Shown here: in pieces, positions 5,935 to 33,879 of the stretch
How positions within the stretch are numbered: position 1 is the stretch's first letter
Layout of the letters: each line of letters begins with the position of its first letter
Notes under the pieces: generated by a model
Told to the model about the DNA's origin: nothing
What the model saw: only the letters and a program-made list of their open reading frames with translations
Databases searched by the model: none
Translations under genes and position numbers: made by a program
NCBI GenBank assembly: GCA_040954595.2
Contig: CM082581.2
Span: forward strand, 13,403,921-13,467,920
Length of the DNA stretch: 64,000 nt
Reading direction: 5' to 3'
Origin: Balanoglossus misakiensis
Taxonomy: Eukaryota; Animalia; Hemichordata

Positions 5935-5951
5935 GAGAGAGAGAGAGAGAG
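5935..5951 (+). repeat. (GA)n microsatellite
   Basis: About 8 units, preceded by GAGTTA/GAGATG hexamer variants. Confidence 0.85.
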
Positions 5952-7170: not shown

Positions 7171-7218
7171 CAATACAACACAGCACAGCACAACTCAACT
7201 CAACACAACACAGAACAG
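7171..7218 (+). repeat. Degenerate pentanucleotide repeat (CAACA/CAGCA/CAACT)
   Basis: caata caaca cagca cagca caact caact caaca caaca cagaa. Confidence 0.8.
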
Positions 7219-10200: not shown

Positions 10201-10773
10201 AGAACTTTGGTGACGTCACCGAGCCCCCTGTTTTGCATGTAGGTGGATGTAGTCTCTATTTTGTGACTCTGCTATCTCGATCAGGATCTGCCATTCTTTA
10301 AGAATGTGGGACTTAAATGACTCTCGCGGGTGGACAATCCATAGAGATGAATGGCAACCAAAGAGAATGGTCATCGCTCACAGAATGCTGCCCCGTGCTG
10401 TAAAGAGGCACTCGCCAAGGAAACTATTTTGTGTTATCAGAATAAAAGATATTCCATGGCGCGAACTAATCATACTAAGCATGAAGCAGGCATCTAAATT
10501 GAGCCTAAGTGTCGGGAAATAAACCCCGGAGTTTACAGTCGAACGTGACGTGCTCTGTGTACTTATAGACGGTTTACGATGCAAATCAACTCTTGCTTTT
10601 GTTCAATGCATGTCATCGTTAGAAAAAATGGCTTTGTTTTCGCCGAAAAACGACACAAAGATACATAAATTGCAAATTGATTGAATGAGAAAGGTTATGA
10701 TGGCGACATCCTATATGTTTGTCAATATACTTAATTTGAGACAGTAAAATACGAAGAAGATATCCGTTACTAG

Positions 10774-10775
10774 AA

Positions 10776-10810
<35 letters not shown>
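10774..10810 (+). repeat. (AAAT)n microsatellite
   Basis: About 9 perfect units. Confidence 0.95.
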
Positions 10811-10813
<3 letters not shown>

Positions 10814-10851
10814 TTAAGTTGACATTGTCAAGGTGATAGCGCGTAGTACAG

Positions 10852-11086
10852 CCGGGATTCAGTAATTTTGCAGAGGTATCGCGACTTTCAGTTTAACATG
10901 TCTGATTTTGTAACTCCGAAGGATAAATCACTTTGTTGTGTCGTCATTATTAAACAATTGGATTTTTTAAAGTTGGCACTCAATAGGTGATAACAACGTC
11001 AATTACAAACCGGGATTCTGTAGTTTCGCTGAGGTATGGCAACTTAAGTGTAACATGTGCGATGTCGGCAACTTTGAAGGATAAAT
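10852..11086 (+). repeat. Diverged direct repeat, ~77 bp x2 (10852-10928, 11010-11086)
   Basis: CCGGGATTC.GTA.TTT.GC.GAGGTAT.GC.ACTT..AGT.TAACATGT...GAAGGATAAAT in both copies, period 158 bp. Confidence 0.75.
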
Positions 11087-11152
11087 TAAACCATAAGTGT
11101 CATATTCATCTTGCTGTTATTGACTACGGTACTTCATTGAAAGACCAGAGAC

Positions 11153-11470
11153 CTTCAAGGTATCGTGGTCCTCGAGAGTCTTCTGGCGAGGAAATGAATT
11201 ATTTTAAAATGAGTACTGTAGCGCTTCTGATTTTTAGAGATGAGCCACGAGTATCCACTTACAGAGTGTGAGCCCATTCAGCATTTACCTCGAACATTTA
11301 CGTATAATTGCTCAAGACAGCTTCAGATTATTCTTTCTTAAAATTGAAAATAAAAATTTCGCCTCACCCTGGAAATTTTTGAATGAGAGAACTAATATGT
11401 CTCAAATTTGTAAGGTTTGGAGGGATATCATTCTTCTGAAAACATGTCCCTGAGGTGCATACTACCATAA
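11153..11470. mobile_element. Decayed MITE-like element
   Basis: The right end TGAGGTGCATACTACCATAA is an imperfect inverted repeat of the left end TCAAGGTATCGTGGTCCTCG. Its reverse complement closely matches TTAAGGCAGTACGCACCTTA near 59964, implying a dispersed family. Confidence 0.4.
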
Positions 11471-14400
11471 CTCGAGACAATGGGTTTTACTCAAGGATTT
11501 CAAACCATGATAGATCCAGATGGTGGAAAAATTCTAGGTTGTCAACCGTGCCTTAAAATTTTACCCGACTCTCACCCGCTTTTATACACTTCGCCTTTAA
11601 ATTTGAACAATTGCTTTCCCCATTTTCACCTGCCCCGTAATTTAGTGCTGCAATTTAGTCTCAACTGGCAGATAGCTGTGTGATGTCACAGGTTTCCTGT
11701 TAGTTCCAAAAACTGCAAGGTGTACACGTGCTACCATGCAACAAAGTCATCAGGAAATGAAAGATTCCGCCAAGTAATGATGAAAACTGTCTTGGGAATT
11801 GGAGAGAGATAAACACATGTACTGGTTCAAATAGCTGTCTCAGTGTCAAGGCCACCTTTAATTTTAAGGTGCTGTTATCGCCATGTACTCCTTCATTGAT
11901 GTGTGTTTTCCTGCCCGCGGAATATTCCCCATGGGAACATCTTAACATCTATTGGGCGTAGTGTCTAGTATGTTGACATAGCACAAACATTTTCATTTAA
12001 TTTTCGTTTTGCATGTTATTTTTTCCAAACCAAATTGTAGCTACAGGCACGGAATGAACATTTCAAAACATCCCTCTGGAAATTGTCGTTTTGTAATAAG
12101 TACATTTACTGTACAACAGCAAGTGCATATACGGCCAGTTGACTTGATAGAAGACAATATCGTCTCATTTCCTCTCTTTTAAAGAGTGCCTTGGTATTTT
12201 CTATTTTGTAAAGTGCAGAGTCTCTTTCGAACAAAGTGTGAAAGGAAGTAACAGGTTAAGCGCATGGGCATTCTTAATGACATTCATTCTGACATGCGTA
12301 TGGGAAGATGCACTGGCTTCTCCTGACGCAGCTCTGGGTATAGTTTGCAGTACTGCACAGCGTGCTATGGCTAAAGAGATAATCTAATATAGTCTTAAGT
12401 TAGCGCTAATGACTGCCATTTAATGGGTAACAGCCGTTTGTCCGATGTTATGCCGCAGTTGGCTTCGCGATATTTCCCAACTAAGATTATAGCAAAGTAA
12501 ACAGTCCCTTTTCTTTTTAACGCAAAATACTGATATATGCCAATTAACACGTGTGTGTTATAATATCTAGCAGAGTGCATCTATTAGCGTAACTGATGCG
12601 ATGTGTCTCCTGTCCAATAAACGTTGTATGATGTGTGATGTGAAGAATTGCGAAACATTTTAGCGAATTTACGAGATAAATTCAGAGGGCAACTTTCACA
12701 AAGCTCTGTTCCATTATGCCTTAAGTGTCCATTCTTCTGTGAAGACATGCTTATTTTGTGGCTTGTTGAGAGGGACGTCGGCGCCAGTGCCTTATTAAAA
12801 GCAATGGGCACTTCGTCGGTCCTCTTCGATGTGACGACAATGCGACAACTAGCACCTCCTTGGTGTGAAATTTCCCACAATAACCTGACCTTTGACCCTC
12901 TCCTTAGCTGCTCAACTTGAAACAAGCGCTGAATCTTTCATGCATGAAACTACAATCAAGCGTGTTTCAAGTCACGTTCTTCAAGGGAAAATTCTTCTAC
13001 TCAATGTAATATATAGTTGACCTATGAACTCAAGATCGAGTTAGTTTCCCCTAACAATCGTCCGTGTAATGTCGTAATTCGTCTACCGTGAGATTGAATG
13101 TAAGATTCATCACTGGATTTTTCTAAAAGGGCTTAGCCTTCGATTTCCTGATGATCTACCCCATCAAACACTTCTATCGCTCACTTTAAACATGAGGCTG
13201 AGATAAAAAGAACATAGACCCTAGATTTCTCGCACACTCAACTATCCCAATGCATACACACTGCATATAATTGAGTGAATGTTGTTTCTGTTTGCTGCAT
13301 ACAAAATCGTCATATTCCGGCCCATTTATTCCGCGTGATATCAGGAGAAATACCCCAAAGGTAAATATTCGGGTAGAAACTGAATACGTGCTTTATTCCC
13401 CGGTTTCAAGGATTCTCTACAAATTTACAAAAAAAAAATTGATCACAAAGCGGAGGAATACCGCAAAGTCATCGACCCCCCTCCCCCTTCCACCATAAGC
13501 TAGTCCACGTTCAGTCGTAGTATCAGCCATTTGTAATTTGTAATATAGACCGATACTCCCTCTCAAGTATTTAAAATATATGGAGTGATTCAACAGAGCA
13601 AAAGATAAGAAAATGTAAATGTTGTATCACTATTTCAAAATTTAAAGGAAAGTGGAACTAAATCAATCCCCCTGACCCCCTTGAGGGTACAGTTTCTGTT
13701 GTACTAGTTTTGCCGGTCTGAGATCGTTGATGGCCTGGTATGATGCCCACTGTCCGCTGGTAACCTTTCACATGTAGTCTCAAAAACTTCGGCCTTCGTG
13801 ACCAGCAGTTGCTAATAATACAGTAGGAAACATCAAACTTTTCCACGCATCAGTAAACATGTAAATATGACATTTGACGCTTCCGGAATCCCGTTTGACA
13901 TTCGCTGTTAACCGATCCGGCCTCGTTCCCCTCTCCCTAATTTTCAGATGGGAAAGATAAGATCTTTATTAATCTAGGAAGCGTTTTAAATTCCCTTATC
14001 CAAATTTTCTTACAGTTTCCTCTCATTGCTACTTTGTTTAAAGAGAATTCGATCACAAGTCCGTTTTCACACCTCTTTTTTTATGACAGGTTACCTGGCA
14101 GATATATTAACTGCTCTGATTATAGACGGCTGTTTCTTTTTAGAGAAATAGCGTTCGAGATCTCAATCTTGTTTCTTTGCCGGCTTGATACCTGTTGACA
14201 TGGATAGATATACAAATGTAGATATATCTTCTTTTTGAGATCCAATCTTTTCAAAGCGATTTTCGTACTTAACGCCAAATCGGAATTGTCTGTGGACATC
14301 TGCGTCATGGCTACGTCACTAGACTATTTTGTAACTTTGACGCACAGGTGCCGACATCGTCTCGTAAAGTATATCGTGACATGTGCAGCGCGCGACGATT

Positions 14401-14663
14401 AAATAAACTGTCAGATCAAGTTTTGATTACTTATTATCAAAGTGAGTATCACTTGCGAGACACAATTGAAGTTCTTTTCTCCAAAGGAATAACAATATAT
14501 TTGATATCGGTAGGGTTTTTGGAAAAAACTTACGGCACCACCATAGTGGAAGTTAGCATTAATCGTACAGAGAGTGTCATAAAACAAGAACTTTGATAAC
14601 GGTCTCACCAAGTTGTCGATGGTGATCGGCTTAGACTTCATCCTCGTTGAAATTCGTGGGAGT

Positions 14664-14947
14664 GGGCGGACGTTTACAAGTGAGATTGTGACGTCACCAG
14701 CGGGCTCTGTCGCTTGGGTTGTGTGAGCGCCAAGCCATGCATAAAGGTGCTGAGACTTCACGCTTCCACAGGTGGTGTATTTGAAACCTTTGCACACACA
14801 CACACTGAGATTCATCGCCAATCAACAAATCAGAGGAAACGCCAATCGATCACCGGACAGGCTCAACCGCTCCACGGCTTTACTTTACCACGGAAAACTC
14901 GACCACCCGCCAAGTATTCTTGTGAGTCACTCAGCGGACATAAAAAG
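14664..14947 (+). promoter_or_regulatory. Putative promoter of the corazonin-type gene
   Basis: GC box GGGCGG 14664-14669; palindromic CRE GTGACGTCAC 14688-14697; CCAAT 14818-14822 and 14842-14846; AP-1 TGAGTCA 14923-14929; TATA-like CATAAAAAG 14939-14947. All are in a sensible order upstream of the exon. Confidence 0.62.
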
Positions 14948-14969
14948 CGGCCACAAGACTATCATAACT

Positions 14970-15058
14970 GCATCCGTCCCATACGCATTCGAGTGGACAC
15001 ACAACGGAGCACAGTTACCCTAGCCACCTAGTGAACATCTAACAAGTACGAAGCAAAG
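14970..15058 (+). other. Putative non-coding first exon of the corazonin-type gene (TSS approximate)
   Basis: Perfect donor AAG|gtaagt after 15058. No ATG. Starts about 30 nt downstream of CATAAAAAG. The coding exon at 19078 begins at a splice acceptor, so an upstream exon is required. Confidence 0.65.
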
Positions 15059-18000
15059 GTAAGTTCTTTTTATTTTCTCTAATCATTTTACATTGTGAAC
15101 ATGATGAACACGTTACGGTGTCTTTAATTTCGCAAATGCATATCCAACAAACAACGTTTTGGACAGGATCTTGTTGTGTTTTATCCACCTGCAGTTTGGA
15201 ACTGTATTTTGACAAACAGAAGGCAACCTTTGATGCCAGCTTTTAACAACCCAATATCTCCTAATAACCCATGGAAACGATAGCTTTTGCATGTTGTGTG
15301 GGTCAATCAATTTCATCTAAACCATCTAATGATATAAACGGAATTGCTTTCAATGACTTTAATGCCCAGTATTTACGAGGCCGCCGAGTAACGCTATCCT
15401 CTGATGGAGTAATTTTCCGAGTTGTAGACTGTTTCTATAGGGTCAAAATTTATCTCTCTGAAAATATACACTGACATGACGATTTTCCGGTAAGCCAACA
15501 AAGAGGAAAAGAAATAAAATCTCTGCGGGAAAATACGCGGTTGCTGTAGATAAATAGCAGGGAGCTCATGCTGCCCCCCCAAAAGCAGTACACATGAGAA
15601 TTTATTTTGTTACTAAATCATTTTGAAATAGCTGAAAATTGAATGGAGCCTCCGATTGAAAGTACCCTTCTCACTTTGTCGGTAGAGGGTTTCCAGATGG
15701 TGCAAATCAAAACTTTGACAAACAAACATAAAAAATACAATACAACAAAACACGCGAGTCTGGAAAAAGAAACCATTACTTTGTAATTCTTCTGGTTATT
15801 TAGTCATTGTGTTCAGTTACGTTTGTATAGGGATAATTTAGTCTACGAACCAAACAAATTTTCAAGTCTTAACATGATTATGTGTGTTAAACTCAGCTTA
15901 CTTTATATTAACATACTGGTATGTTCTTTGTACTGTAATGTCGCTCTTCGAAAACAAATGTTAAGATAATCAAAGAGCAAACATTTATTCTGAGCACTTC
16001 CTCGAGGTCATTGAGTATTTAGACTCTTCTTTGCTGTCTAAATGATAGCACCGATAACATCGCTGTGATAACACTGTGCTTCAGATTAAGGGCAAGAAGC
16101 CACACACTCTTTGATTGACAACACAAGGTGATGCGTTAACCACATTTCCGAGATTTCTTCACAAAAACCTATCTGTCCAATTTCCGAGAAGTTAGCTCGT
16201 GGCGGGTTCAGTGAGCTTGACATGGCGTAATACCGTGTCTAAATGGGGTATTTTAATGTTATTTGCTGAGTAGAGGACGCTCAAATGAATTAGATGTTAA
16301 TCGAATCAAAACCGGAGGGTGCCTCCTTTACGAACGCTAACTGACAGAAGAGCTTTTAGATTTAATTCTGAGACAAATAAGAAAGTGGGTTTCAGTGCAT
16401 GGGAAAGCATTCACTGTCTGATGGCCATTAGGTAGACGTGGCAATGAAGGTGTTTTCCGCGGGTCTCGACCACACATTTCCACGTTTCGCAGTTAGCTGG
16501 GCGGCTCAAGTAAAAAGGTTCGTGCTCACGCATGGATTGCGCCGACTTTAAAACATCGATAACGCCTGACACCAGTGTGCCCTCTTTAATAGGTCTATAG
16601 GCATATTCTCTCCCCGTGGCGTTTTGCATGCTCTATCGCAAGATTTTCCCCGCGGTATCATATCATGGGAAGTTGCCATTTCAGAATCAAACCACTTAGG
16701 AGAACGCACAACATAATGCATCATATGGTTATGTTCATCACCCCGTACACATACACAGCACATCTCCAGAACTACTAAATACCACACCATACATCAAATA
16801 TCGTACATTAAATTATAAAATACGCTGTACATCAAAACCCAGAAATCGATAGACACTGTATACACTAATTAGATTTGTACATTTTTCTGGCTCAAGTTTT
16901 CAAAAAGTTTAACAATGCTCATTGTAAATTTTGTGAGTAGACAAGCTACAGAAAGAAATGGGACAGGCGAACAGGCAAGCAGGCAGGCAAGCAAGCAACG
17001 ATACAGATGGAAAGAGCTGCTGATCGAAGATACTTGAAGTCAAATTGTTTCTTCACATGAACATTGCCGATCTCTAGTGCATTTTAAAGCCGCTGAGAGT
17101 GATAGTTTTTATCTGCCAATTTTCTGTTTGGAATGATTTAATGGGCACTTAGCTAAAAAATTCCCAAGGAATGGAATATGAAGGACCTTTAGGCTATTTA
17201 AAAGGATGCCAATACCATTGTTACACTGTCTCGCCGTATGATTTGAAGAAACGAGCTATGCAGGGAGGAAAAAGTAGGCCTATATGTCTGACACACTTGC
17301 TTCCATGTGGCCACCAATTAAAAATATGCTATAGGCTAGATCTCGATCACAGGTGACTGCTCGTACGAACTTTCCTCCAGTAGAATGCCTTCATTCCTCG
17401 ACTCATCAAAAATTAGTAGCCGCTGATATCTCATAAAGGATGTATTAGCTTACTTAGAGAAAAGCCGCGTAGTTATGAGAACATTACAGCATGTTGTGTT
17501 AAACACGACCCTTTCCTTACTGACTTTCTACTAAATGTTCCATATGCTTGTATAGCCGCAACATTTTAGAAAATGCTTCATCAGGTTTTCAACTGAAAGT
17601 ACCGGTACATCGTAAACTTTACCGACTGAGTTACTTATTTCAGCATTAGGCTTTTCTCAAAGGAACAAAAATCGATAAATGTCTTTCAAAATGGTTATGA
17701 AAATACGTTCTGTCTCTTTTAATGTCTTGCCTATTTAAACGTTAACTTTTATATCGTATGATACAATAATCATTGTAAATGCAAATGTTTTATTGTAATG
17801 AACAGTACATTAAACATAAAATTACCCTATTGTTGTACGTTAATATCTCGACTCGGATACAATATTTACAACTCTGGCCACATGGTTTGCATTTCAATGG
17901 CTTTGCTTGTTTCAGAGTGCGTGTGCGATGGACTCAGATTTATTTGCAAAGTATTAACTTCATGTAATTGTTCCTTTTTGTTGATTGAACGTGAAATTTA

Positions 18001-19084
18001 CGATTCTGAAACAGCGGGAGACATCGACCTTGGAGCCACCACTAATACTGGGAAAATCTCGGCAGCACTCGTAAAACATATTTGTAATTGAAGATTCCTG
18101 AGTAAAAACTACTACTTGTTTGGCTTCGATGCAACATATACAAAACAACAAGTCATTAAATGGCATAATTGATGAAGGCGTCTGCTTATATTGCTGAAGG
18201 AAAGGTTCTTTAAAGTCAGAAAGTGCTTATCGAAATGATTAATCGAGCCCAAGACGCACTCCGTGCTAATATTTAAAGAAGGAAGCAGATAGCAACGTTA
18301 AATGTGATCGTTGAGTTGCCCAGTAATACCTTTTTGGTTAAATTCCTGTAAATGTGAAAAGGACCTTTCGCTTAATAAATAGGTAGAACGAAAGCCTTAC
18401 TTGTCAGATTAATGCGTGACCAGACATGAAAGTGTGTATCTAATTTGATGTCCATTGCAAGCAATAAAGTTACATACGACAGATATTTTCTCTCTTGTAT
18501 CCGATCCCTTGGTTCCCGCCCTTCTTTACAATCAGGACTCCTAATTAAAGTTCACCATGATCTATATCAAGAAGACAGCAATTAGATTTCTCAAAACGTA
18601 TCTTATGTGCAAATTATTCGTCTAACGGGGGAAAATCCGCAAAGATGGACTGCCTATTAGCAAAATTTGCCAACATTTAGTGTCCATTATCACGACTTTG
18701 CAGAAGTGGGTTCTCATCAAAGGCAGAATTATACGACTCCGTTTGGGACGCTCGCATACAGATGTTGTATTAATGGCCAGAGCTTTGACAAAACAGTCCC
18801 AGTGGTCGAGAAGTCCATATGGATATTATTTCGGTGCCAGTTACACAAAGACTCAGCTCTCATTAAGAAATCCCGCCGGTGTAAGAAATCACACCATATT
18901 CATTGAAGTGGCATCTATTTTCCTTGTTTTGCTGAAATAATGGAGTAAAGGTTTTAAGATCTGTCCTTATTTTGCTACAAAGGTAAAAACAATATAAAGT
19001 GAAACCGAAAGCTCGTAAAAGAGATCTCAGGCTTCCATTTATTCATTATTTTTCTCTGATTTGACTCTCTATTCTAGAACAACC

Positions 19085-19234
19085 ATGAAGAACTCCACGA
19101 CATGCATAACTTGTTTACTGCTGGGGTCATTGCTCCTCGCACAGCTGCTGGCTTCAACACAGGCACAGCCGCACTTTTCCCTAAAAGACAGATTCCGATG
19201 GAAGGCAGGCAAGCGTGCCAGCACAGGCCTCAGG
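19085..19234 (+). CDS. CRZ: Corazonin-type precursor coding exon 1 (signal peptide, mature peptide 19166-19207, GKR 19208-19216); exon starts at 19078
   Basis: Acceptor ttgactctctattctag|aacaaccATG (exon from 19078) with good Kozak context accATG. Donor AGG|gtaagt after 19234. 150 nt = 50 codons. Confidence 0.93.
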
Positions 19235-20992
19235 GTAAGTGCATTATGACTCCTCGCAGGAATTATGTACCACTCGTTGAAGCATCATGGATTGTTGAAA
19301 TGACATGTATCCATGCATGCATGTACTGGTATGGGTCAGGAAGTTCTTGTGTTTGTTCAGAGGCTGAACATCATCAGCACCATTTAATTAGTTCACACAG
19401 CAAAATATCTCCCGCATTATAATTTAATATTCTGTCTACCCTTGTTTGTGCAAATTTATATATATTTGGAAAACCACCCATATGGACCTTAAAGGTTATC
19501 TTAAGCAACTGCAGTTTCAAAATTGTTGAATATGAAATTATGCATTTCAATACTTATCAAATCATTTGTAACTTGAATCACAGTCACGTTGGCATGGCAG
19601 TGGAAATTTCTTCTCCTTTTAACTGGGGAAAACATTTGCTGCATCATTCGCAGAGAATATACACCACCTGGATCCCTCATTTGAATTTAACACGGTTGCT
19701 TATCAGAGACTTTACAAAGTATCCTCTCATGTCATGCCATCAACAGGGAGTAGTTAGCACCAATGTGTGAAAAATGATTCATCTTTACCGAAAGCTTGGG
19801 GTGTGGTTCCCTCGAAGATAACCGACAGTTTGAAATAGAATAGCATAGCCTTGTTCATGTCACAAAAACGTAAACGTTGCACGTTTTCATTCTGAATAAA
19901 AAAAAACAAGAGTCTATGAAAAAGAGCACTTCATTTTAAAAAGATTAAGAACATAAACCCTTAGTGTCCGATACGATCTGAGTCAAATGGATCCTCGATT
20001 TTTGCCAGTCATCGGTGTTAATGCATGCTTTCCCAAGGGCAGAATTCAGTGCAACTTAACGAAACATTGTCGTTTCTTCTCAAATGGGATAAGACTTTAT
20101 CTAATTTTATCTCCCTGCCATATCTTGTCCCACTCCCTCCTGGGTCATTACTGTAATGAAAAAATGGTCGTTGACGAAGGTCTATTCATGTTGCCTCTCA
20201 GTATCAAATTATTTCAGTAATTGCATTGAAGGCACCATATTTTTGATGCCTTGAAATCATAGCATGCTTCCCATCAGGTTAATATCATAACTTACAGGGG
20301 ACACAGTGAACTCCTGATGCGTGTAAATTCATGGGTGTATTTATCTAAGCTTGGCGTGATTTTTATAAAACTACACGTAGCCCTGTCGGAGTGACAGAAC
20401 TCATTACTTGACTTTTGAACTAGTGATTGGTAAAAGAGTTTGTTCAGCTAGATCACAGGAGAGATTATCGGGATAGTTAAAGACTGTGATGAGGCGGATA
20501 TGTTCTTGAAGGTCATTCGCAATCGCTTGATAGCGTGAAGTGTGATCTGTCATTCCAACTGAACGCGGAAATTTCAACGCATTAAAGTTGAGGGGGAGTG
20601 GGAGGAACCCTTAATTCTTGTCAGCAAGAGAGTGTCTTGTGATTAAGCTCACAGGTCGGTCAATAGCAGTCAGGGCGTAGGTGGCGTCTGAACATTGACG
20701 TCACATTGTGGTTGTCGCAAACTTTGACACTGCCTGCCGACACTGCCCGAGTGCCTACCTGCCTGACTGACTAACTGACGATTTCAACAGCAATGAAACC
20801 AAACAAATCGACTAAAGAATATATTTAACTTTGACGTGTTTTCATCATTTATTTTCCCGGCAGTTGCCTTCCACCCTGAGTGCGCTATTGAAGGAATTAG
20901 ATTCGGATCTCAGGACGCGACAGATGCTGAAGAACCTTCCTGTTGAAGAAAATGTCTTGACATCCGGAGAAGACAACCTTGAAGAATACTGA
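19085..20992 (+). CDS. CRZ: Corazonin-type (GnRH/AKH/CRZ superfamily) neuropeptide precursor, spliced CDS join(19085..19234,20864..20992), 92 aa
   Basis: Spliced translation: MKNSTTCITCLLLGSLLLAQLLASTQA|QPHFSLKDRFRWKA|GKR|ASTGLR^LPSTLSALLKELDSDLRTRQMLKNLPVEENVLTSGEDNLEEY*. A hydrophobic 27-aa signal peptide ending T-Q-A is followed directly by a Gln-initiated peptide with Trp near the C-terminus, a Gly amide donor and KR. It closely resembles the Saccoglossus corazonin/GnRH-like peptide as I recall it (pQPHFSLKDRYRWKP-amide). Canonical phase-0 GT-AG intron. Precursor status is firm; CRZ versus GnRH orthology is less certain. Confidence 0.9.
20864..20992 (+). CDS. CRZ: Corazonin-type precursor coding exon 2 (acidic precursor-associated peptide, 42 aa + stop)
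   Basis: Acceptor ttttcatcatttattttcccggcag|TTG. The phase-0 frame is open for 42 codons (LPSTLSALLKELDSDLRTRQMLKNLPVEENVLTSGEDNLEEY), with TGA at 20990-20992. Helical, acidic composition typical of GnRH/CRZ-associated peptides. Confidence 0.82.
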   Translation: MPSTLSALLKELDSDLRTRQMLKNLPVEENVLTSGEDNLEEY

Positions 20993-23900
20993 TACAAATA
21001 GATACAAGATATACCAGCCCCATAGTTGTGACAACGTCACTGGGTCGAGAGAAATGATTCTGTTATTCATTCATTCATTTGTTTCGTTTATACCACTCTG
21101 TAGTAGAACTCTCCGAATTCAGTCGTTTTGAATTAAAGAAATCTCTCTCCCTTCTGGTGGCGTGTCTTCTAGTAGTTAATTAGACAGACACCTTTCACAT
21201 CGAGGCATATTGCCCACACTGATGTTACATGTAAAATTGCTTGTTTTCATGAAATGCATTATTGTTTTGTAACCTAACGTCCTTCAGTTCATTTTCTTGT
21301 ACTCAGTTTAACCCTGATTCGATTAACTCCTGGTCCACTCGGGAAAGACCGTACATGACATCGCACCCATGTCCAAGCAACGGCCATGATTAGAATATCG
21401 CAGCGGAAGTGTATCCCCAATATTCACGTTTTAAAATTCGGTGTGAAAAACTTGACAGCGTGGTAGGTAACAGATGAGAAGGTATACATTATTGGCGTGA
21501 TCACGCGTCACAGTAGACTCACAGGGAATCTGAGAAGTCGAAACGACACAGACAAGGTGATCTTTTAACACTACCACTTGTCTTTCTGTCCGGGTATGAC
21601 ATTTGTTGTCGCTTATATTTTCATTTCAAATGATGATGGTGCGATTGGTGTTTGAAAGTGCCGTGCATTCATAGTGCTGTCATTGAACGCTGTGAAGGTA
21701 ATCGTATCCAACTGCAGCAATGTATAGGCACACTTCACTTCAACATACATGTAGTCGAGCAAATCAGATATTCTAGGACTGAACTCTGTTTTTCCTTTTG
21801 AAGAGTCACATGACTTCAGATAAACATGCCAAGTCTACAAATTAGTCATATCGCGCATCTATCACATACTATTAGAGTAGCATGCGATACAGGTTATCCA
21901 GCCTGTTGTTGTCGGGGTTATCAATGATCTTATATTTGTATAATTTCTGATCAAGGATTTGTTTACAAGCAGTTGCTTTCATTTCGATGGCAGAATTTGA
22001 AAATGAATTGTACGACAGTATATTTATATGTTCAATAAAAGTGAAAGTTGCAATTACTTTTGGTAAATGTTATTTCGAGTTGAGGCTCTCTGCTGTGTGC
22101 ATTAAATTTGCCATCAGCCGTGTAACTTGTCAAATACACCACCTGTATATTCCAAAAGTGAGAAGGAAGCGTTTGGTGAAGTTGTTGTGTTGAATGTTCT
22201 TCAAAATAACCCCTGGAATAAAATATTCTGCTTGCTATCATTTCCAAATATGGACACGATCATTTTAAAGCAATGCGGTCGTCTATAGTACGCATGTCAC
22301 TTCACAAATGTGCAACTTTTTCTATCGCTGCCAGTTATTACGCCGGCACTAATATTCCTCTATTTGATTAACAAGTAAAATAGATTGTATTTATTGAGTT
22401 CAGAGCCATTATAGTTATCAACCTATAGCAAGCGCCGTGGGTATTCAATTGGAATATATGCAGAAGTGGGTAAATGCTTGATCGGTGCATTTTCTCGCAG
22501 AGTGGAAATGCCACTTCTCAATGGGATTTGTCAGTCATTACATTACGCCTGTTGACGTTGCCCAACAAATGGCTTGTGCTGTACTTATTTACCTTCAGGC
22601 TGGGCTTCTAAAAGTGCACAGCACGCCTCTGCTACCAAGTTCACTTTCTCCTTGACGGACAGGAGCGTCACGTTGGCGCGAGGCTAGCGAGCGTAATGTC
22701 GAGACACTGATATTCCTTTCAGTGATATTTGAAGGCACCTAGTATGGTTCTCACTTTGCTTTTAGTGTGTTGTCCTCATTATACAAGGGAAACGAAAAGT
22801 GTACTTGGTGAAAAGATCAAATAATCTGAGACTCCTAAGAGGTGAAGAACGCGAAATTTCACTTCTGAGTATACTTAGGATTTGGTTCTCCGTAATTTAA
22901 AGGTTTCACACGGTTTACAGTTGGGCATAGTGTCAAACATCAATTTGTTCACGACTGTATCCCACCATTAGTTGGGAGACATGACAATGGTACCAAGACT
23001 TGTTTCCTATGATAAATGTCAGAATGAGACAAACCAAACGTGTAGCGCCCCTTACGTTGAAGATTCTATGGCATCATGGCTGTGTCTGTGTGTCTGCATG
23101 AATTGATATTAGTGACTATTTAATTCCGTTATCATTGCCCACGGTTCTGATACAAGACAGCGCTACTATGTTGTTTATCAAGGAGAGGAAAGATGACGGG
23201 CGTTGAAAATTGAATTCCCGAATGAGGAATTGGTGTAATGTCATTCCCACTGTACCGCGGAGTTTTTGCGTTTGTGTAATACAGCCTATGCGAAGTTTAA
23301 ATGATTGAAAACATTCTTCTTGACTGAATCTAACGCATGGCAACGTTAACAACAACAACAATAACAATTAATTAATCGCGTGTGTAAACAATGTAGTCTA
23401 ATGAGTAACGTCCTGCAGACAAATCTGACATTACATGTACTTATCTTGTAATGTCAGCCAGAAAGCTTGCAGTACATTTGTAGAACATGCGAGACCCGAT
23501 TTTCTGACAGTGTTATAACGATAACTATCTCAATATCAGTAAAAGATTACTTCATTTGAAAGTAGCTGCTTCTTATCATGGACACTTAATTGGGTAGGAG
23601 GATTCAAAGAATATATGAGACAATTGAGAGCTGTTTGATGTTAGAAAATGCAAATAGTATTTGCTTTTATTGATCTCACGCAAAGATCTGTTTGAAGAAA
23701 GACATTCACCATTATCTTGTGCATTAACTGTGCATTTGTACATTTAATGAAAGTTTGAGACGATATGTACGCAGAACTATTGCACTAACTTAATGAACTT
23801 GCCTCTATTAACGATTATTATGATCTCACAGACACGTGACTGAATTGAGAAACATACAGCCATGTCCTGTCATGTACCATCTGACTTGCAACTTTAATGA

Positions 23901-25705
23901 GCATTAATAATTGTGTATGAATTTCCAGGTATGAGTCGCTAAAGGTGATAAATTATGCTATTGATATTGACATACAGACAAACATACATGTGCATTCATT
24001 CATACATACTTACTTGGGGGCGCCATACTGTACAATCGTCTTTCCTTTCCTTACCTGCTTATAAGATCTTCCTCACAAGTCAGGATGAAAAATGGCCAGG
24101 CAAGGCCGCAATCAGATCAGACAGTACATTTCTGCTGGATCCCACGTACTTTCCTTGAATTCGATTATTTAAACGTGATATAATATACAATATACACAAC
24201 CGTAGTGGGCGTGAAATGGAAATAAAGACAAGAAACCAGCTTGCTTTTGAAACATAAATAGCATTGTTTATTCATTCGTGAAAATATGCTATCAGGCGCT
24301 TTCTACTGTCTTTTCATGATACAGTGATTTTTATCCGTTTTATATGACAATTTGGGTAATACATTTATGATTTATTGAATCTCGTGCCGTCCAAATACCT
24401 TGTATAATTAGTGTCAAGGAGTAGGAACTATATGATAGTGTGTGGTAGCAGTATTTGTTTTTCACAGACTCGTAACCTCCTTTCAATAAAACTGGAAAAA
24501 ATTGACACAGTTACTTCATGGTTTCTAGAATCTAATGTTAATGCGTTATTGCAATCATTTAAAAGTCTTTGGTAAGGGCGTCAAAAGAAATCCAAGATTG
24601 CAAGCCCCGCACAAAATTGAACCTGGCAGTGTGTACATATGGCTACGTATAAACTTTGGCTTAAGATTCAGATGTAATTTTTTGTGGGGTATCCGGAATT
24701 GATATGTTACAGAGTGATCTTTCATTTTTCTGTGAGTCTCAGTCTATCTTTTTGCTTAAACATGGGCTCTTTGCGCAACATCGGTAAATAATAACGTGTC
24801 GAAAAATGTCCCCATTCATTTTTAACAATTCATTTGGTTTAGTAGATTTTTAGATCTGAGACAGCCATCGTAAACTTAATTTCACCGTAAATCTAAAATT
24901 AGCAAGTCAAAAAGTCACCACAGGCAAATCATGCTTGGAACGTAAAATGCCAGTAATTGATCATAAAGCTGCGCAAAGGGCCACCGCTTTTCTTTTATCC
25001 AAATAAACTATTTTTCCATGCAAAGTCAACTGATAGATTTTGCATCCTGAATATGTTCTTAACCGTTTTTAGTAAGCCCTTCGGAAAGTCAAACCTACAA
25101 CATTAACATGTAATCCGATTTATAATAAAAATTAAAAACAAACCCACAAATGCTGCTTTTTGGCGAGGGGTTTGTCGGCGAGAGGGGTAACTACAGCAAA
25201 TAAATGACCTTGAGAGTTTCGGCAGCGGTACTCCGTTGACAGTTGTAGTCAACGAAAAACTTTAATTGACAGGAACACGAAGTGGACAAACTCGAAAATC
25301 TACCACTAACACTACGATTTACTATCTATATGTAGAATTTCTCCAATGGTACTGATGACAGTAGCCCGCTGCCAGACCCATTTTACGTACTTAGCCATAC
25401 ACAGGTGGGCCTGAAAGACGTCCCGGTAGTTTTTCAATGAGCACAGGTCAACACACTTGTAGAACAAACGGGCAAAGCTACAAATAAGCTATGGAAACTT
25501 GATAAAATTTTGAATTATGCCTTGAATTTACAAACGACCCCGTTTCAGACGTGAATAATGATCGATATTGAAGATGACGTAAATAGTTTGCAATCTCAGA
25601 TGCGTTCTACTCGTACGTGGCAAAATATTGCACACACTCATTGAAGACTTATTTTTTAGAATATAAGTTTTCAGATTTGCTATATTGATGTACACTATTT
25701 ATGTT

Positions 25706-25711
25706 TTTATT
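25706..25711 (-). terminator. Candidate polyadenylation signal of the NG-peptide gene
   Basis: AATAAA on the minus strand about 235 nt after the stop codon. Alternatives exist at 24267-24272 and 23666-23671. Confidence 0.3.
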
Positions 25712-25945
25712 TGCATCAAATTCCCTGTGATTTTCTTGAAGAAACGTGCTCGTTTCTTTTACTTCTAAGATTTGAACGTGATGGGTTTGATGAATCAAAA
25801 CAGACAAACAGCCGCGGAATAGCGCCACCAAGTGCTCAAAACCGATGAAAATCACACGGAACTTGATGCTAGATTTTTTATGATGACTTTGCTTAAATTT
25901 TATACAGTCATTGAAAACTTCCAGTTCATGGTGGTGTTTGTGTTA

Positions 25946-26194
25946 TCAGTACCATACAATATCACAGTCTGGGTCAACGGAACATGAGTTCTCGGTCGAA
26001 TCGCAGCAAATTCCATCGGCAACACATTTCCCGCCATTTCCGCATTCTATGTCGCTTCCACCACAGAGGGCCGTCGGTGGATTTGTCATGCAGACATCGG
26101 CTTCTTTGGTGAGCATGAAGCAGCCACTTTTCAACTCGCAGCAGACACCGTACATGACGCACTGACCTTTTCCCTCTGGTCCACACGGAGTACA
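25946..26194 (-). CDS. NG-peptide precursor coding exon 3 (neurophysin domain)
   Basis: Acceptor tattgattgctttcag|TGT. Translation CTPCGPEGKGQCVMYGVCCELKSGCFMLTKEADVCMTNPPTALCGGSDIECGNGGKCVADGICCDSTENSCSVDPDCDIVWY*, with 14 Cys in neurophysin spacing (CxxCGP..G.C....CC...GC...C...C...C...C....CC...C...C). Confidence 0.96.
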   Translation of the reverse strand, partial: CTPCGPEGKGQCVMYGVCCELKSGCFMLTKEADVCMTNPPTALCGGSDIECGNGGKCVADGICCDSTENSCSVDPDCDIVWY

Positions 26195-29100
26195 CTGAAA
26201 GCAATCAATATAATATAGACAAAATTAAAACAAGGATTGCTAAATTCTACGTTACGTGCAAATGACTGGATGTGCGAGAGGGGGGGGGGGGCCAAAGGGG
26301 AACAAAAACATTTTACAAATTCGTCAAAGGGCCCTAGCCAAAAAATTAATGTCAGATACCGGTATGTATTGTCCAAATTGTCTCAGGATTGTGCACTGTT
26401 CAAAGTTGACCGACGGGTACACTAGTTAGAACATTTGAAGTGGTCTTTCCCCCAAATGTAACCATGGTGCTTTTCACGCGTTCATGGCCCCAAATGATAA
26501 CAGCCTTGTAAGGTGGTGGGGTCACTCCCTTGACGCGAAACGCCTGATATCGATGTGATCAATCATGACCCGCATGGCAGGTGAAACGTAACTCACAAAT
26601 TGCATAAAAGATTAAATCATCTGAAATAATACAGTATCCGGCCTGAGGACATGTTAAATGCTTCGCAGTCACCACTACCGACACTGTGTAATCTCCTCTC
26701 CATCTTATCCCCTTATTTCAGACCTTCTCTTGATTTTCACTCAAGTGGAACGGGGATGATTGAAATACTGTGTTTTCTTTTTTGAAACGTCAAAGATAAA
26801 CTAATTCTACCCCCAAACATCGAAGCTTTACATGTCCCTGGTTTAATACTTGTATCAATCTAATTGTCGGTAAATCTCTCTAAATCCTAGCATCACGAGA
26901 TCTTGTTTCCAACGTCACATGCTAAAACTGCAGGCAAGCACTAGGTTTTTGGCCTGTTGTACTGTTTTCATCCAATGTATGCAATATGCTATGTGTTTTC
27001 GTTACACACACATATACCATTAATAATTATGGTTTTATAATATAAAACCGCTTCAACAGTTGTAGCCATCCCTGAAAACTTATGTATACCTTTGAGTGAT
27101 AAAGCAAAGTTAACGCAAAATAATTGAAATTAAACATAGTGATAAGTTTATGTTTCCAAAGTACAGTAATGGGAAAGGAAGATATACGTTGTACTGTTTG
27201 ACCAAGAAAGATTGAGTGTCACTTGTGTAATTGACATGGTGATATTTGACCGAAAACCAAGCATTTTGAAAAGCAAACAACACCTGATCACACACAGTGT
27301 CATCACACTTTCCATTAAAGTAACAAGCTGGGACAGTCAAGGTGTATACATTAACACCAGCGCTGTCATGATTTCACTCTCACGCAAAGGAGGCAAGACA
27401 TTGAAGCTTATCCGAGCTCCGCTGTTCCAATAATACACGCATAGCATCCTTTCAGGAAGAAAAGCCAGTAGCAATTTTTTTGTGATCGATGATTGTATTG
27501 TTTTCTTGGGAACATGATAATATCCTAAGCCAGTCCGCGATGATTTTTCAGCAGTCGCTGGGCGTGTTTTGTCTGTTGGCAATCAAACACTCTGCTCTGC
27601 AAACCACAGATGTGCTTCGTTCGTTCATTTCGTGTTTTCAACGTGGAGGGTCAACAGGTTCAAGCGAGCAAAGAAATTGTATCTGACGCTGCCATCAGCA
27701 GGTGTGACGTCATAGATAAGATTGGATAAATTGACCAAAAGCGCCCGCTTATATTCAATCGAAAGTTTAAAATTCAGTTCAGTAATCGATTTCACGGGGA
27801 TACAACGCAACTCTCTGCAACGGGGTCGAGTAGTTCACAACAGTTCTCCTCAAAGACTAAGTGCCACCGTGTAACCTCCATTGAAGTCTTATCAACCCCA
27901 AAGTAGCGTTTGGCACAGACCGTTTTTTTTGGATCTAAAATATGGCAATCTCCTCCCAGGAAGTATTTTTCTATTTCCCCTCCATTACTCTAGAAACTAT
28001 TTGCATGTGTAAACATATTTATTGAACATCTATATCAATTTGATATGCTGTTGTTGTTGTTGTTTTTCGAGTGGTGACCAGTATCAAGGCTTTATTCTAA
28101 GGACTTTGGGTCAAAGTGACATGCGCAATGCCATGCTCCTACCCAACCCCCAACCTTGCGGAGACCCAAGCGCACGCCTAAAATAGCGCAAATATTATTT
28201 GCCAATTAATTTCTTATATACAGTGACCACGGTATATTTGGAAAGCCCTTGTATCTCCACGTCCACTGGGAGAGATCCTCAGAGAAATACCGTGCTACTC
28301 AGTGAAACGCCGTGCACCCAAGGGTCTGAAATGTACACTCGTAGCATATCAATGAACAACTTTTCCGGATAAACTTCCTTGCATGGTAATTGGTGTTGCG
28401 TGGCAACCCATAGTTACCCGAAATCCATAGTGCATTCCATGTAGCGCAGCGTTTAAAATGGCTGCGGTAAATAGTCAATCCGGTAAATTTACGTTTTACG
28501 TATATTGAGAAGTAAAGATATGGTCTAGTCTTGTTTTAATTTCAGTAGAATGCATTACCAAAATATGAAAGTTGCAGGTCTTTTCTCGTTAGTATAGTTG
28601 TAATTCTGAAAAGACGGCAAAACTTAAGAAGCGTGACACGGGGGCCGGGCTTGAGATGAGTACTGTCCCACTTTTATGCGCATGTCAGCCATCACTTTGA
28701 TTAACTCACAGAGAACATCTCGTTAAGCCAGAGTGATCAATGTACATGCAATCTGAATAAGTTAAGATCCATTTTATGCATCGTGTACTGCGACGCTCAA
28801 TTCACTGAGCAGCAGCCGAATACAAGAACCAGTCATCTACGTTCGTTCTGATTGCAGAATAGTGTTGCCAACATTACTTAAATTGAAAATAGTCACGACA
28901 ACAAATTGTGATTAAATTTGGTCGTACGCGAAAAATGGGCGGAGTACGAACTATAGCATCGCTTCTGTATACCATGACAACTTCAAGGGAGACTATATTG
29001 TGAGATTCAAAATGGATGATGACATACACAGTCTCTGCATTGCTGTCCTAATTATAAAAAAATCAAAAATAAACACAGAGAATTCACAGCGGGCACTCTC

Positions 29101-32082
29101 TTGATGTGTATAGTGCATGGAGAGGTAATTGCGTCAACATAGGTTTGTCAAGTCAGTAACTTAAAGATGTATTTATCGAATCGAGTTTGCCGCTCGCACA
29201 TCAAGCAGATTCTTACACCCTGACACTTGGCCATACATTAGAATACATATCACCGTGGGATACGCGTGTAAGGCCATTAATTGCCGACTAAAGCGCGATA
29301 CAGCCTTAGTTTCGCGCCATCTTAAGAATTCTTCTTGACAGTTACAGGGCAATGTACTTCTAATACGCACTGAAACTACTAATAAGTCCGGGTTCAGTAC
29401 GATCACGTTCTACGCTATGAAATCTCGCTGTGTCAAATTCATATGTACAGTATCAGAGACGAATCATTCGTAAATTGGATTTTGTTTTATGACCAGAGGT
29501 GTGAATTATTGAAGTTTGGAAGAATTGTGCACTGGTTGTTCAACTATAGTTGGAAACTACCATTTTCAATAAGCTATTCTGTATCCCTAAAACATGACAA
29601 AATCACAAGCCTTACTCAGGCTGCGATTATTGAATGTAGCAAGATTACTTTACGATGTTGTTTTTGTGTTTAATTACTAAGGGCAAAACTGGCTCGGTAA
29701 ATGTTGGTGTACCCCAGAAAATACTGCTGCAAGAGTTTGAGGTTTAGATAAACTACGAGGGGAGATACGCGCGCCTGGTTAAAACATCACTGAAGCAAAT
29801 AACAATTATAAACTGACCCTGTAGCATAAACTAGATAACCTGCTTCAAATGATTATTTTGTAACAGAAGTATTATATTTCTTTTTTAAAAAATGTGTTTC
29901 GGGGAGGTACTGTTAAATTTTAAATTTAAGCCGGAATTGCTCTGGGATTGCATCGTAAAGGGACGAAAGATAAGCTCAGATACTGCTTAGTGACTTCGTT
30001 TGTGCAATGTTTAATGAGCACTTTTTAGAGATTGGGGGTAACATGGATATGTTCGTTAAAAGTTATTGCTCAAAGACGCAGCTATTGTGGTATTAACTAT
30101 ACTATACCGCCATTAGAACAGAAACTGGAGTATCTTAATACCAAAATGTAGGAGCAAAGTGGTTGTTAACTGAAGCTTATTGATTTTGTTCTGTACCTCA
30201 GCGGGCAATGGTCTACCCTTACTATCTAACATTAGCTTACAGTCAGTTTTGAGTACATTAACAGAAAGTGACGTCATCCTATGTCGTCACTAATATGCTG
30301 TTCTGAGTCAACCAATTAATACAATCTATCCAATGAATATAGGACAGATCGTAACAGATTAAAGTGTACTGAAGGAAGTTCATGAAAGTCGAAATAAGGT
30401 CATCATGACCCTTCACATAGGTGACATAGTGGACACTGCATGAAGGCTCAGCAATTATGTATGCTATTATTAGATTGTGCTTATATCGCACTTGTATAAT
30501 ACCTTTTCGTTTTCTGGTGCTTTTGATGAGAGCAAATTCAGAAAGGCGTTCTCCGTCTCTGCTGCACTCCTCTTGCCATTCCAGAATCCGTTCCTCTTCA
30601 TTCCGGCAGCGCCACTCGCCGCTGTGTTTCTTTTCCCGTTGTAGAACCCATTCCTTTTCTTCTCCTGATCAAAGCTCCTCTTGCCATTCCAGAAACCGTT
30701 TCGCTTGCCGTTCCAAAAGCCGTTCCTTTTCCCGTTCCAAAAGCCATTTCTCTTGTCCTCCTCTCTCGCGTTGTCACCAAGAAGGGACGAGCTTCCCACC
30801 TCTAGAAGTTCTTCTGTGGGCCAATATTTTGGTATTTGCAAAACCTGCAGATTAAAATATAATCCTGCATTATTTCGTTGCGTCATATTTCCTGTAACCC
30901 TACTGCACGTTTTATGCTCTTGCGAGTAAGACTATAAAATAACATTCAAATTCCTCAAAAGACTCATAACATGGCTTTCTTAACATGGAAAATGTTTAAG
31001 TCGATGACAATGTTTATGTTGATCGGTGATAAATAATTCAAAAGTATCCCTTCTCCGCCCCGCCCACTTCTGCACCCTTACGTCATGAAGAGAAAAATGA
31101 AGAAACAACGTTAGGATGTATTTCCATGAATAATTTGTTTTCTGGGTTAATGGGGATCATTGAGAGTTGCGTGCTTTTTGAGTGAATCTTTTCAACGCCA
31201 TATTCAAAACGCTTCTGTCGGTGTGAACTGTTCCTTCGATCGCGTCCTGTCGTCACGATTGCAGGATGTACAATACATTAATCTATAAACCCCTGTTTTC
31301 ATAAGCGAGGGGTATACCAGTACATAACGGTATATGCACATCGAAATTGTAAGAACGTGTTGGGGGAGGGGAAGATCAGACTGCGTTCTTTGCAAGAACG
31401 GGTCTTTTAATCAGTGAAATGAATGAAAGCCCCAAAGGAGGCATGATGATCCCCCCAAAAACTGCACTAGGGAGAATTACAGAGCGGTGACGAATTGGCT
31501 AGCTCTCACAGATTCAGAGGATTTAAACAGACTTTGGCAGATGGCACAAAAAATAACCCAACAGCGATATAACAAATCCACCAGATAAACTTTTAGCACA
31601 TATAACAATGGGATACTTGAATGATCGCAGGCAAGATTAAGCTGGTATACCAAGGCTTATACTAGATTTGATTTCAAGAAAGTCCAGTCACAGCCCAATA
31701 TTTGAATTCGCTGAAAGAATCGGTCAGTTTATTTATAGCAGCGAATATTCATGATGCAATAAAGGATAGGTTTAGGTATGGGGGACTAGATAAATACCTT
31801 GTGCACTATACGATTTGATGGAAGCCCATAAAACGATTCATTATAAGCCACAAGACTTTACTGCGTTTAAATTATTTCAGAATTAGCTGACATTGCACCA
31901 CAGGGGTCGTGCATAATTAAAACTTCCCTCCATATGACATAGGTAATTTATCGAGCATTTGAAGAAACACACACCTGATCATCTGTCAATTCATTGTTGT
32001 CGTCCAAAGTTACTGCCGATGTTGTATACAGTCCCACTATGGCAACTGTGAAGACTACAGCTACAAAAATGTGTCTAAGCAT
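25946..32082 (-). CDS. NG-peptide (NGFWNamide/NGFYNamide; NPS/CCAP-type) precursor with C-terminal neurophysin, complement(join(25946..26194,30503..30844,31975..32082)), 232 aa
   Basis: A signal-peptide exon, an exon with KR-NGFWNG-KR x4 and KR-NGFYNG-KR x1, and a 14-Cys neurophysin exon. Both coding introns are GT-AG and phase 0, and the frame is continuous. Matches the known deuterostome NG-peptide architecture (hemichordate NGFWNamide/NGFYNamide, sea urchin NGFFFamide, starfish NGFFYamide). Confidence 0.96.
30503..30844 (-). CDS. NG-peptide precursor coding exon 2 (4x NGFWNamide, 1x NGFYNamide)
   Basis: Acceptor atattttaatctgcag|GTT, donor AAG|gtatta. 342 nt = 114 codons: VLQIPKYWP...DKRNGFWNGKRNGFWNGKRNGFWNGKRSFDQEKKRNGFYNGKRNTAASGAAGMKRNGFWNGKRSAAETENAFLNLLSSKAPENEK. 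Confidence 0.96.
31975..32082 (-). CDS. NG-peptide precursor coding exon 1 (signal peptide); exon starts at 32163
   Basis: Minus strand: strong acceptor tttacttttatctttttttctctgtag| (exon from 32163), ATG at 32082, translation MLRHIFVAVVFTVAIVGLYTTSAVTLDDNNELTDDQ (36 codons, hydrophobic core, likely cleavage after TSA), donor CAG|gtgtgt. Not in the supplied ORF track. Confidence 0.9.
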
Positions 32083-33775
32083 TCTAAAATCGGGTGTGTT
32101 TACGATCTTCTCTCCTTTGGCTTCAAGTTCACCTTTGGTTCAACTGTGCTTCAGATGGAATCTCTACAGAGAAAAAAAGATAAAAGTAAAGCCAGTTAGT
32201 TAGTTTGACATTTAACCCCACACAGTATTTAACAACAAAATAACTCCTCTCATGCCTGAGTGAATTGTCGTGTTGGGACCGAGAAGCTTTGAGATAAGAT
32301 CGTAGGGTGTGCGACAGTTTCTTCTGGCGTCTTTAGGAACAATTAGCAGCCAGGTGGAATCAGATATTTTAAATTGATGCGATAGATTCTCTTATTCTGC
32401 AGGAGACAAATCCCGGTGGTGGTGATAAGATGCTTTATCCTGACGTTTCATCAGGTTAATCTGTTTCGTAACCGATATACCAAATATGCTCTGCATATTT
32501 ATTTCATTTATAAAATCATCCTTGCTTCCAGTGTCACGACAAAGCTAGAGACGAATCCTCAGAGCATTCGTTTGTAGTTTGTCACGAAAACTGCAGAAGA
32601 CGACGGATGAGCATGTGAATGGAATGACTGAGAAACTTGCTAACACGTCCATTTTCTTCTGTCTGTCTGACTCAAGTATTTTGCTATAACACTGAATTAT
32701 ATGCTTCTGTTTACATGGCCTTTATTTCATCAGCGGTGAACACTGTGCACTGTCATTCTTAAACATGAGTTGTGGCTCACTTGTATTATAAACACTAATG
32801 GTCATATGAGATGGCTTTAATTTGCTAAAACGTTTGGCAAATGTAGTTATTAACACCATATGTTGATAAATCACTCCATAATAATGCTTTAGTAAAGTCA
32901 CAAAATATGCTCGATTTCCTCTTTTTATGGAGCCTTTTCACTTTTGGCACATGATTGATATAAATGGGCAATATTTCTAAATTAAATCCAAACTGTGGCC
33001 AGCTCATTTTCAAATTGCTGATCACACGATGCTTTACCCGAAAGACAAGCCATTTTCAACGCTCTTGAGACCTATGTACAATGCGAGCTTCTTCCATTAC
33101 GGGAAATTAGTTGTTCTGTGCCTTTGTTCGAGAGTGTGTGGACAGATTTGTTTGCGAGAGGGTTTATCAGTCAAGATTTTCTCATTTACACATGAAAAGT
33201 GGAACGAAGGCGTTGTAGCACCACAAACATATATATGATTTTGAGTTTTTTTAACAATCTGCCTGCGCAATGTAAAAAAAACAAAAAATGCATCTTTTGG
33301 TCCATTTCAACAGCCATTGTTAGCAAAGGATCATGGGTAAGGGCAGATTTGTGAGATGTCGACTAGGCCACGTTCATGGTCTTTATGTTCCGTAAACATG
33401 TTGCAGTTATGGTGTTCAAGATAAAAGGGCGAACAGCGATGGACCCCAAAAATGTATAAATCATTCATGGATATTTCAAGAACGTGTGACGAATGCCAGA
33501 AATAAATGATATTTACGAAGCAAGAACGGCAATTGCTGTCATTAGTAGACGTAATCAAGACTGACTCCGTTGATCGACTTTACGTGTAAACCTTCAATAT
33601 GCGCCATCAATTCTGCATTGAACGTAATTGTGTGAACTTCCGGTTCAAAAAAACCTTCTTCCGGTCTATCACAGCAGACGTTAAAGCATTCCATGTTATT
33701 ATAAGTGTCACTGGTTGCATTATGTCTAACGGTCAGATCGATTAAAGATCACTAAGTCCTGTCAAAAGTACTCAC

Positions 33776-33879
33776 GACCGGAAAACAGTACTATGCTGAC
33801 CTGTTTTCTGAGCCCACTGATATAATTGTGTTGGATAAAAAGTATAAGACGACACAGCTAATTTATAGCGTTTCCGCCC
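33776..33879 (-). promoter_or_regulatory. Putative proximal promoter and non-coding first exon of the NG-peptide gene
   Basis: Minus strand: GC box GGGCGG 33879-33874, TATAAAT 33867-33861, a short ATG-free segment, then donor GTC|gtgagt after 33776. It lies 1.6 kb upstream of the acceptor at 32163, which needs an upstream exon. Confidence 0.55.

Follow-up and report, generated by a model that had tools for sequence, protein, structure and literature searches.

We analysed a 64-kb stretch of the genome of the acorn worm Balanoglossus misakiensis (GCA_040954595.2, contig CM082581.2, positions 13,403,921 to 13,467,920 of the forward strand), called the window below. It carries an intact corazonin (CRZ) gene on the plus strand and an intact NG-peptide/neurophysin (NG) gene on the minus strand. 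The two genes are convergent (tail-to-tail) with 4,953 bp between their stop codons. At a probability of roughly 0.8, this adjacency is an inherited piece of a cluster of the amphioxus type, composed of a vasotocin-type (VT) gene, CRZ and NG/NPS. A first-pass annotation of the same DNA had described two intact convergent neuropeptide genes with stops at 20992 (+) and 25946 (-), and its frames, splice sites and stops were all recovered. The features of the locus are as follows.

14664-14745, plus strand: likely CRZ promoter with a putative function read from the sequence, comprising what we take to be a GC box (14664-14669) and a CRE-type palindrome (14689-14696), and a TATA-like CATAAA (14740-14745)
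14770-15058, plus strand: predicted non-coding first CRZ exon, start approximate, splice donor at 15059
19078-19234, plus strand: CRZ exon (acceptor to 19078, ATG at 19085) with predicted signal peptide and mature peptide
19235-20863, plus strand: single phase-0 coding intron of CRZ, diagnostic for deuterostome CRZ genes by a published criterion
20864-20992, plus strand: last CRZ coding exon (CRZ-associated peptide, stop TGA), by eye resembling the C-terminal half of the Saccoglossus kowalevskii precursor
22034 and 22217, plus strand: candidate CRZ AATAAA signals
20993-25945, no strand: stop-to-stop interval including both predicted 3' untranslated regions, no recognisable gene in open reading frame/Pfam, Rfam and repeat scans
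near 25706, minus strand: candidate NG polyadenylation signal
25946-26194, minus strand: last NG exon with the whole neurophysin domain (PF00184), 14 Cys and the stop TGA
30503-30844, minus strand: middle NG coding exon with four NGFWN-GKR and one NGFYN-GKR, from sequence and homology
31975-32163, minus strand: NG signal-peptide exon (acceptor 32163, ATG 32082), from sequence and homology
33776-33879, minus strand: likely promoter and non-coding first exon of NG, placed by eye, with a GC box (33879-33874), TATAAA (33867-33862) and a donor at 33775

The corazonin and NG-peptide genes

Splice signals and homology place the coding sequence of the plus-strand gene in two exons, 19085-19234 (150 nt, beginning with ATG 19085) and 20864-20992 (TGA 20990-20992), which are separated by a GT-AG phase-0 intron (19235-20863) and encode 92 amino acids. 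The predicted signal peptide (residues 1-27), which fits the best 11-residue hydropathy of 2.5 at the N-terminus, is directly followed by one copy of a mature 14-mer (residues 28-41) and by GKR, that is, by Gly and a dibasic site (peptide and GKR at 19166-19216). This was the sole open reading frame of the window to combine a signal peptide, a peptide and GKR, against 0.17 expected from 30 shuffles. By eye, 12 of the 14 residues of the mature peptide agree with S. kowalevskii CRZ as aligned by Tian 2016 (PMC4923880, Fig. S9), the two substitutions being F for Y and A for P. In the same figure 31 of the first 49 precursor residues are identical and the second exon is collinear; the S. kowalevskii precursor, with 91 instead of 92 amino acids, shares the architecture and the one coding intron.

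In deuterostomes the coding sequence is interrupted by one intron in CRZ genes and by two in GnRH genes, with the first intron in phase 0 (PMC10321317; PMC4923880, legend of Fig. S9). The main text of Tian 2016 (PMC4923880) gives these intron numbers reversed with respect to its own legend and to PMC10321317. In the plus-strand gene a single coding intron suffices for the full 92-residue protein collinear with S. kowalevskii CRZ, and the mature peptide is of the ambulacrarian kind. Because of this single coding intron and the match to CRZ peptides, the gene is, by structure and product, a CRZ-type and not a GnRH-type precursor. The first-pass label 'corazonin/GnRH-type' therefore stands in its first half, while a GnRH-type identity was ruled out by intron number and peptide match. 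Activation of CRZ-clade receptors has been demonstrated for the starfish and amphioxus peptides only (PMC4923880, PMC10321317).

No CRZ ortholog was confirmed in protein collections, where the only near-length candidate and all 84 longer candidates failed and 1.84 billion representatives gave no match. The S. kowalevskii CRZ transcript bears a non-coding XR_ accession (XR_438542), and an annotation of such genes as non-coding is the likely reason for their absence from these collections. A metagenome scan for related loci produced 79 pattern matches, none of which was confirmed. XR_438542 is also the 'GnRH' probe of the Saccoglossus nervous-system atlas (PMC10508912, S1 Table). By eye it reads as the CRZ precursor of Tian 2016, so that the published Saccoglossus 'GnRH' pattern is likely a corazonin pattern.

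The minus-strand gene, likewise delimited by splice signals and homology, runs from ATG 32082 through three coding exons (32082-31975, 30844-30503 and 26194-25946) to TGA 25948-25946 and encodes 232 amino acids; both of its introns are GT-AG and in phase 0. A hydrophobic N-terminus, which fits a predicted signal peptide, precedes the repeated Asn-Gly peptides with their amidation and dibasic sites, and neurophysin forms the C-terminus. The neurophysin exon matched PF00184 with E 6.9e-13 (49.7 bits, cut-off 27.2) and mammalian neurophysin structures with E about 1e-10, eight solved sequences lying at E <= 1e-9. Two of the four candidates returned by a protein search were relatives, namely the uncharacterised protein XP_070540260.1 from Ptychodera flava and the protein XP_077992726.1 (LOC144446769) from Glandiceps talaboti. 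Full-length identity was 77% to the former and 64% to the latter, and 78% and 71% over the last exon; the precursor is thus nearer to that of P. flava without being the same as the P. flava record. With tblastn, both orthologs recovered the same three exons of the window.

The same layout of signal peptide, NGFWN/NGFYN repeats and C-terminal neurophysin is found in the hemichordate precursors of S. kowalevskii (Semmens 2015), P. flava and G. talaboti. Copy numbers of NGFWN and NGFYN vary, with 4+1 here, 3+1 in P. flava, 5+0 in Glandiceps and 5+1 in S. kowalevskii (Semmens 2015). By its domains and repeats, the minus-strand gene is an ordinary hemichordate NG-peptide precursor. Activation of an NPS/CCAP-type receptor by NG peptides was demonstrated in sea urchin (Semmens 2015).

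The neurophysin of this gene (25946-26194, minus strand) showed two further peculiarities. Aligned to mammalian neurophysin, it shows substitutions or gaps in place of the acidic pair at about residues 46-47, and no acidic residue occurs there in the P. flava and Glandiceps orthologs either. Glu47 is the residue that binds the amino group of the hormone; since the acidic residue is absent, the NG neurophysin may not bind peptide as the neurophysins of vasopressin/oxytocin (VP/OT) precursors do. This bears on a question left open in Semmens 2015. The domain is also wholly contained in one exon, and a phase-0 intron (acceptor 26195, minus strand) leads into it immediately ahead of the Cys that corresponds to neurophysin residue 10. 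The first intron of VP/OT genes presumably sits at the same place of neurophysin. In VP/OT genes the first intron is in phase 0 and a later one in phase 1 (PMC10532012); the later phase-1 intron is absent from the NG neurophysin exon.

The window contains no N, and its GC content ranges from 35 to 44% in 2-kb bins. All 287 stop-to-stop open reading frames of at least 58 amino acids were scanned against Pfam: one, the neurophysin exon, exceeded the curated cut-off, four remained below threshold and 282 gave no match. None of the five matching frames lies in the 4,953-bp interval, exons of an unknown gene shorter than 58 amino acids being below the scan, and Rfam gave no match anywhere in the window. 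This agrees with the first-pass statement that no recognisable gene separates the pair. The flanks (1-14600 and 33900-64000, about 45 kb) were equally devoid of Pfam-recognisable frames of at least 58 amino acids and of Rfam matches; they may be regulatory DNA poor in genes, or lie within a long intron whose gene is outside the window. A hidden VT or GnRH gene was not detected in the window by the neurophysin profile, the signal-peptide-plus-GKR scan or the nonapeptide pattern.

Two other frames were considered and set aside as probable chance occurrences. The frame 41180-41578 (+), of 133 codons, has a dibasic site and a later GKR and lacks an upstream Met and signal peptide; the Cys-containing frame 4472-4813 (+) has no Pfam match. 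The sole internal duplication of the window is a tandem one of a unit of about 550 bp (1410-1933 and 1931-2485, 88% identity), non-coding by Pfam.

Correspondence with the amphioxus cluster

Table S1 of Roch 2014 (PMC3969558) lists three positions on scaffold 36 of the amphioxus B. floridae: VT at 2,320,673, a 'GnRH-like' gene at 2,335,013 and NPS/NG at 2,349,219. The three models follow one another in the list at steps of about 14 kb and lie between HMG20 and LGI/carboxypeptidase. The 'GnRH-like' gene was later reclassified as CRZ, a receptor assay having revealed that it encodes the ligand of CRZ receptors (PMC4923880, PMC10321317). CRZ and NG/neurophysin are hence immediate neighbours in amphioxus (PMC3969558, PMC10321317), as they are in the acorn worm window, and these orthologous neighbours support the ancestral linkage proposed in the first-pass annotation. 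The acorn worm pair is convergent at 4.95 kb stop to stop; for amphioxus, strands are not stated in Table S1.

Since the amphioxus 'GnRH-like' neighbour of NPS/NG later proved to be CRZ, the CRZ-NG adjacency and most of the first-pass inference are already in print. Roch 2014 (PMC3969558) relates the amphioxus cluster to the human GNRH2-OXT/AVP locus, the limpet AKH-VT linkage and the NPS gene of the GNRH3-ghost paralogon, and had already proposed an ancient (bilaterian) linkage with shared regulatory elements. The linkage, its bilaterian depth and the idea of shared regulation thus all have a published precedent. In human GNRH2-OXT-AVP and limpet AKH-VT (PMC3969558) a ligand gene of the GnRH superfamily stands beside a gene of the neurophysin family, like in the acorn worm pair. 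The paralogues differ, with GnRH/AKH by VT in human and limpet and CRZ by NG in acorn worm and amphioxus.

A synteny panel for CRZ, GnRH, NPS, CCAP and VP is given by Yanez-Guerra & Zandawala 2023 (PMC10321317), whose text and methods name B. floridae and Drosophila. The literature search included passages of PMC5818035, PMC11521371, PMC10532012, PMC3316597, PMC7181382 and PMC10508912. No statement on a hemichordate CRZ-NG linkage was found in open-access full texts, subscription papers being mostly outside this search, and 'unreported' is provisional in this sense. What is likely new here is that CRZ and NG are direct neighbours in a second phylum as well, with their orientation resolved; this extends a known cluster and is not a new concept.

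Probable inheritance and its alternatives

The chance adjacency of one pre-specified pair is about 2/N. As a back-of-envelope estimate with assumed gene numbers, this amounts to about 1e-4 genome-wide and to about 2e-3 if CRZ and NG can only lie on a single chromosome with some 1,000 genes. Because the same pair is adjacent in two phyla against such odds, inheritance is the simplest account. The CRZ-NG adjacency is very probably ancient and likely dates to the chordate-ambulacrarian ancestor, since which both genes would have stayed together mainly through slow rearrangement in both lineages. As each has its own likely promoter at its outer end, they would act as independent transcription units that meet at their 3' ends. 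Neuropeptide precursors are generally secreted, cleaved at dibasic sites and amidated. Both precursors would follow this course: the CRZ precursor would yield a single amidated pyroglutamyl 14-mer, the ligand of a CRZ-type receptor, and the NG precursor five amidated NG pentapeptides, the ligands of an NPS/CCAP-type receptor, together with neurophysin as a by-product.

The first-pass annotation derived the ligand genes from tandem duplication. For VT and NG a duplication origin is well founded because neurophysin is common to both. A tandem origin of CRZ from the VT/NG locus, to which receptor trees, precursor layout and position point, is unproven; the two precursors have no detectable similarity to each other, and the genes are convergent and not head-to-tail, so that at least one inversion would have been needed after a tandem duplication.

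Several observations weigh against an ancient linkage. In the drafts of the sea cucumber A. japonicus (PMC6586643), NG is placed on the minus strand, in Li scaffold17 (413,399-449,427) and in Zhang scaffold84 (40,428-88,140). The alignments of CRZ are confined to different scaffolds, 3826 and 4299 in the Li draft and 2745 and 831 in the Zhang draft, and holotocin is found on yet other scaffolds. If the drafts are right, the roughly 413 kb downstream of NG contain no CRZ in A. japonicus (PMC6586643), and the absence from these drafts means that CRZ-NG linkage is not universal. The window contained neither a second neurophysin nor a VT-type nonapeptide pattern, the window reaching about 14.7 kb beyond the CRZ promoter on its upstream side. 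This distance is close to the 14.3 kb of the amphioxus VT-CRZ step (Roch 2014, Table S1), for which reason VT may lie just outside the window. None of the 287 open reading frames matched LGI, carboxypeptidase or HMG20, a scan that would miss short exons. In amphioxus LGI and carboxypeptidase follow NPS within about 19-28 kb, and neither was recognised in the 30 kb past the acorn worm NG promoter. Finally, the adjacency is known from one hemichordate, and the join from the assembly sequence.

Active retention by shared cis-regulation is compatible with inheritance, from which it is distinguished solely by what kept the genes together. In this view, enhancers within the interval or the gene-poor flanks would drive CRZ, NG (and VT) in the same neurosecretory cells, an idea raised already by Roch 2014 (PMC3969558). 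The lack of any other recognisable gene in the 64 kb is in keeping with it, as is the trunk signal of the S. kowalevskii 'GnRH' (CRZ) probe, described as similar to the vasotocin domain (PMC10508912). In vitro, the cardiac stomach of starfish contracts in response to CRZ as well as to NGFFYamide; however, CRZ caused no stomach retraction in any of the 10 animals (10/10) in which NGFFYamide did. The CRZ and NG promoters are moreover about 19 kb apart and face each other, and the linkage appears to be dispensable in the sea cucumber (PMC6586643). The CRE-type palindrome TGACGTCA occurred 9 times in the window against 1.0 expected (5470, 10211, 14689, 20696, 27705, 30269, 37985, 46247 and 53034), but its sites were spread evenly and 4 of the 9 fell in the two-gene span (p = 0.27), which makes the enrichment window-wide and not locus-specific. 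Eight other palindromes exceeded it in observed/expected ratio, mostly at small counts. RE1-like patterns had no match in the window. Shared CRZ-NG enhancers are possible, but regulation as the force that held the genes together is rather unlikely, and the co-regulation suggested in the first-pass annotation is unproven in view of the missing locus-specific motif signal. As a separate observation, TACATGTA was similarly frequent (12 against 2.0 expected).

A lineage-specific coincidence would mean that CRZ and NG shared an ancestral chromosome and were joined independently in acorn worm and amphioxus. The separate sea cucumber scaffolds (PMC6586643), the lack of VT and of the amphioxus flanking genes in the window and the single hemichordate fit this explanation. 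It is nevertheless improbable, since it has to produce the same specific pair as in amphioxus against the 2/N odds, and human and limpet likewise have linked VT/GnRH/NPS remnants (PMC3969558). An assembly error uniting unlinked loci between 21 and 26 kb, conceivable where the join rests on the assembly, is very improbable indeed, because the interval has no N, no repeat common to the rest of the window, no tandem repeat and no GC step, and a chance misjoin is not expected to remake the amphioxus neighbour pair.

Implications for the neuropeptide cluster

Peptide ligands are too short for phylogeny, and gene position therefore belongs to the few kinds of independent evidence that bear on the origins of the GnRH/CRZ and VP-OT/NPS-CCAP systems. 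A tentative and rather speculative extension of common descent is a bilaterian array of four genes (VT, GnRH/AKH, CRZ and NG/CCAP) that arose by local duplication and of which different neighbours were kept, GnRH-VT in vertebrates and limpet and CRZ-NG in amphioxus and acorn worms. Hemichordates might then still possess VT, CRZ and NG as a triplet, with VT immediately to the left of the window, and the gene-poor flanks might harbour shared neurosecretory enhancers.

The acorn worm pair confirms and extends the 2014 result (Roch 2014) and overturns nothing. In the open-access literature direct CRZ-NG adjacency was found only for amphioxus; the hemichordate case would date it back from chordates to the ancestor of chordates and ambulacrarians. 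The orthology of the very divergent 7-residue amphioxus CRZ and the ambulacrarian CRZ would gain support as well, and the CRZ-NG locus gives a place to look for hemichordate VT.

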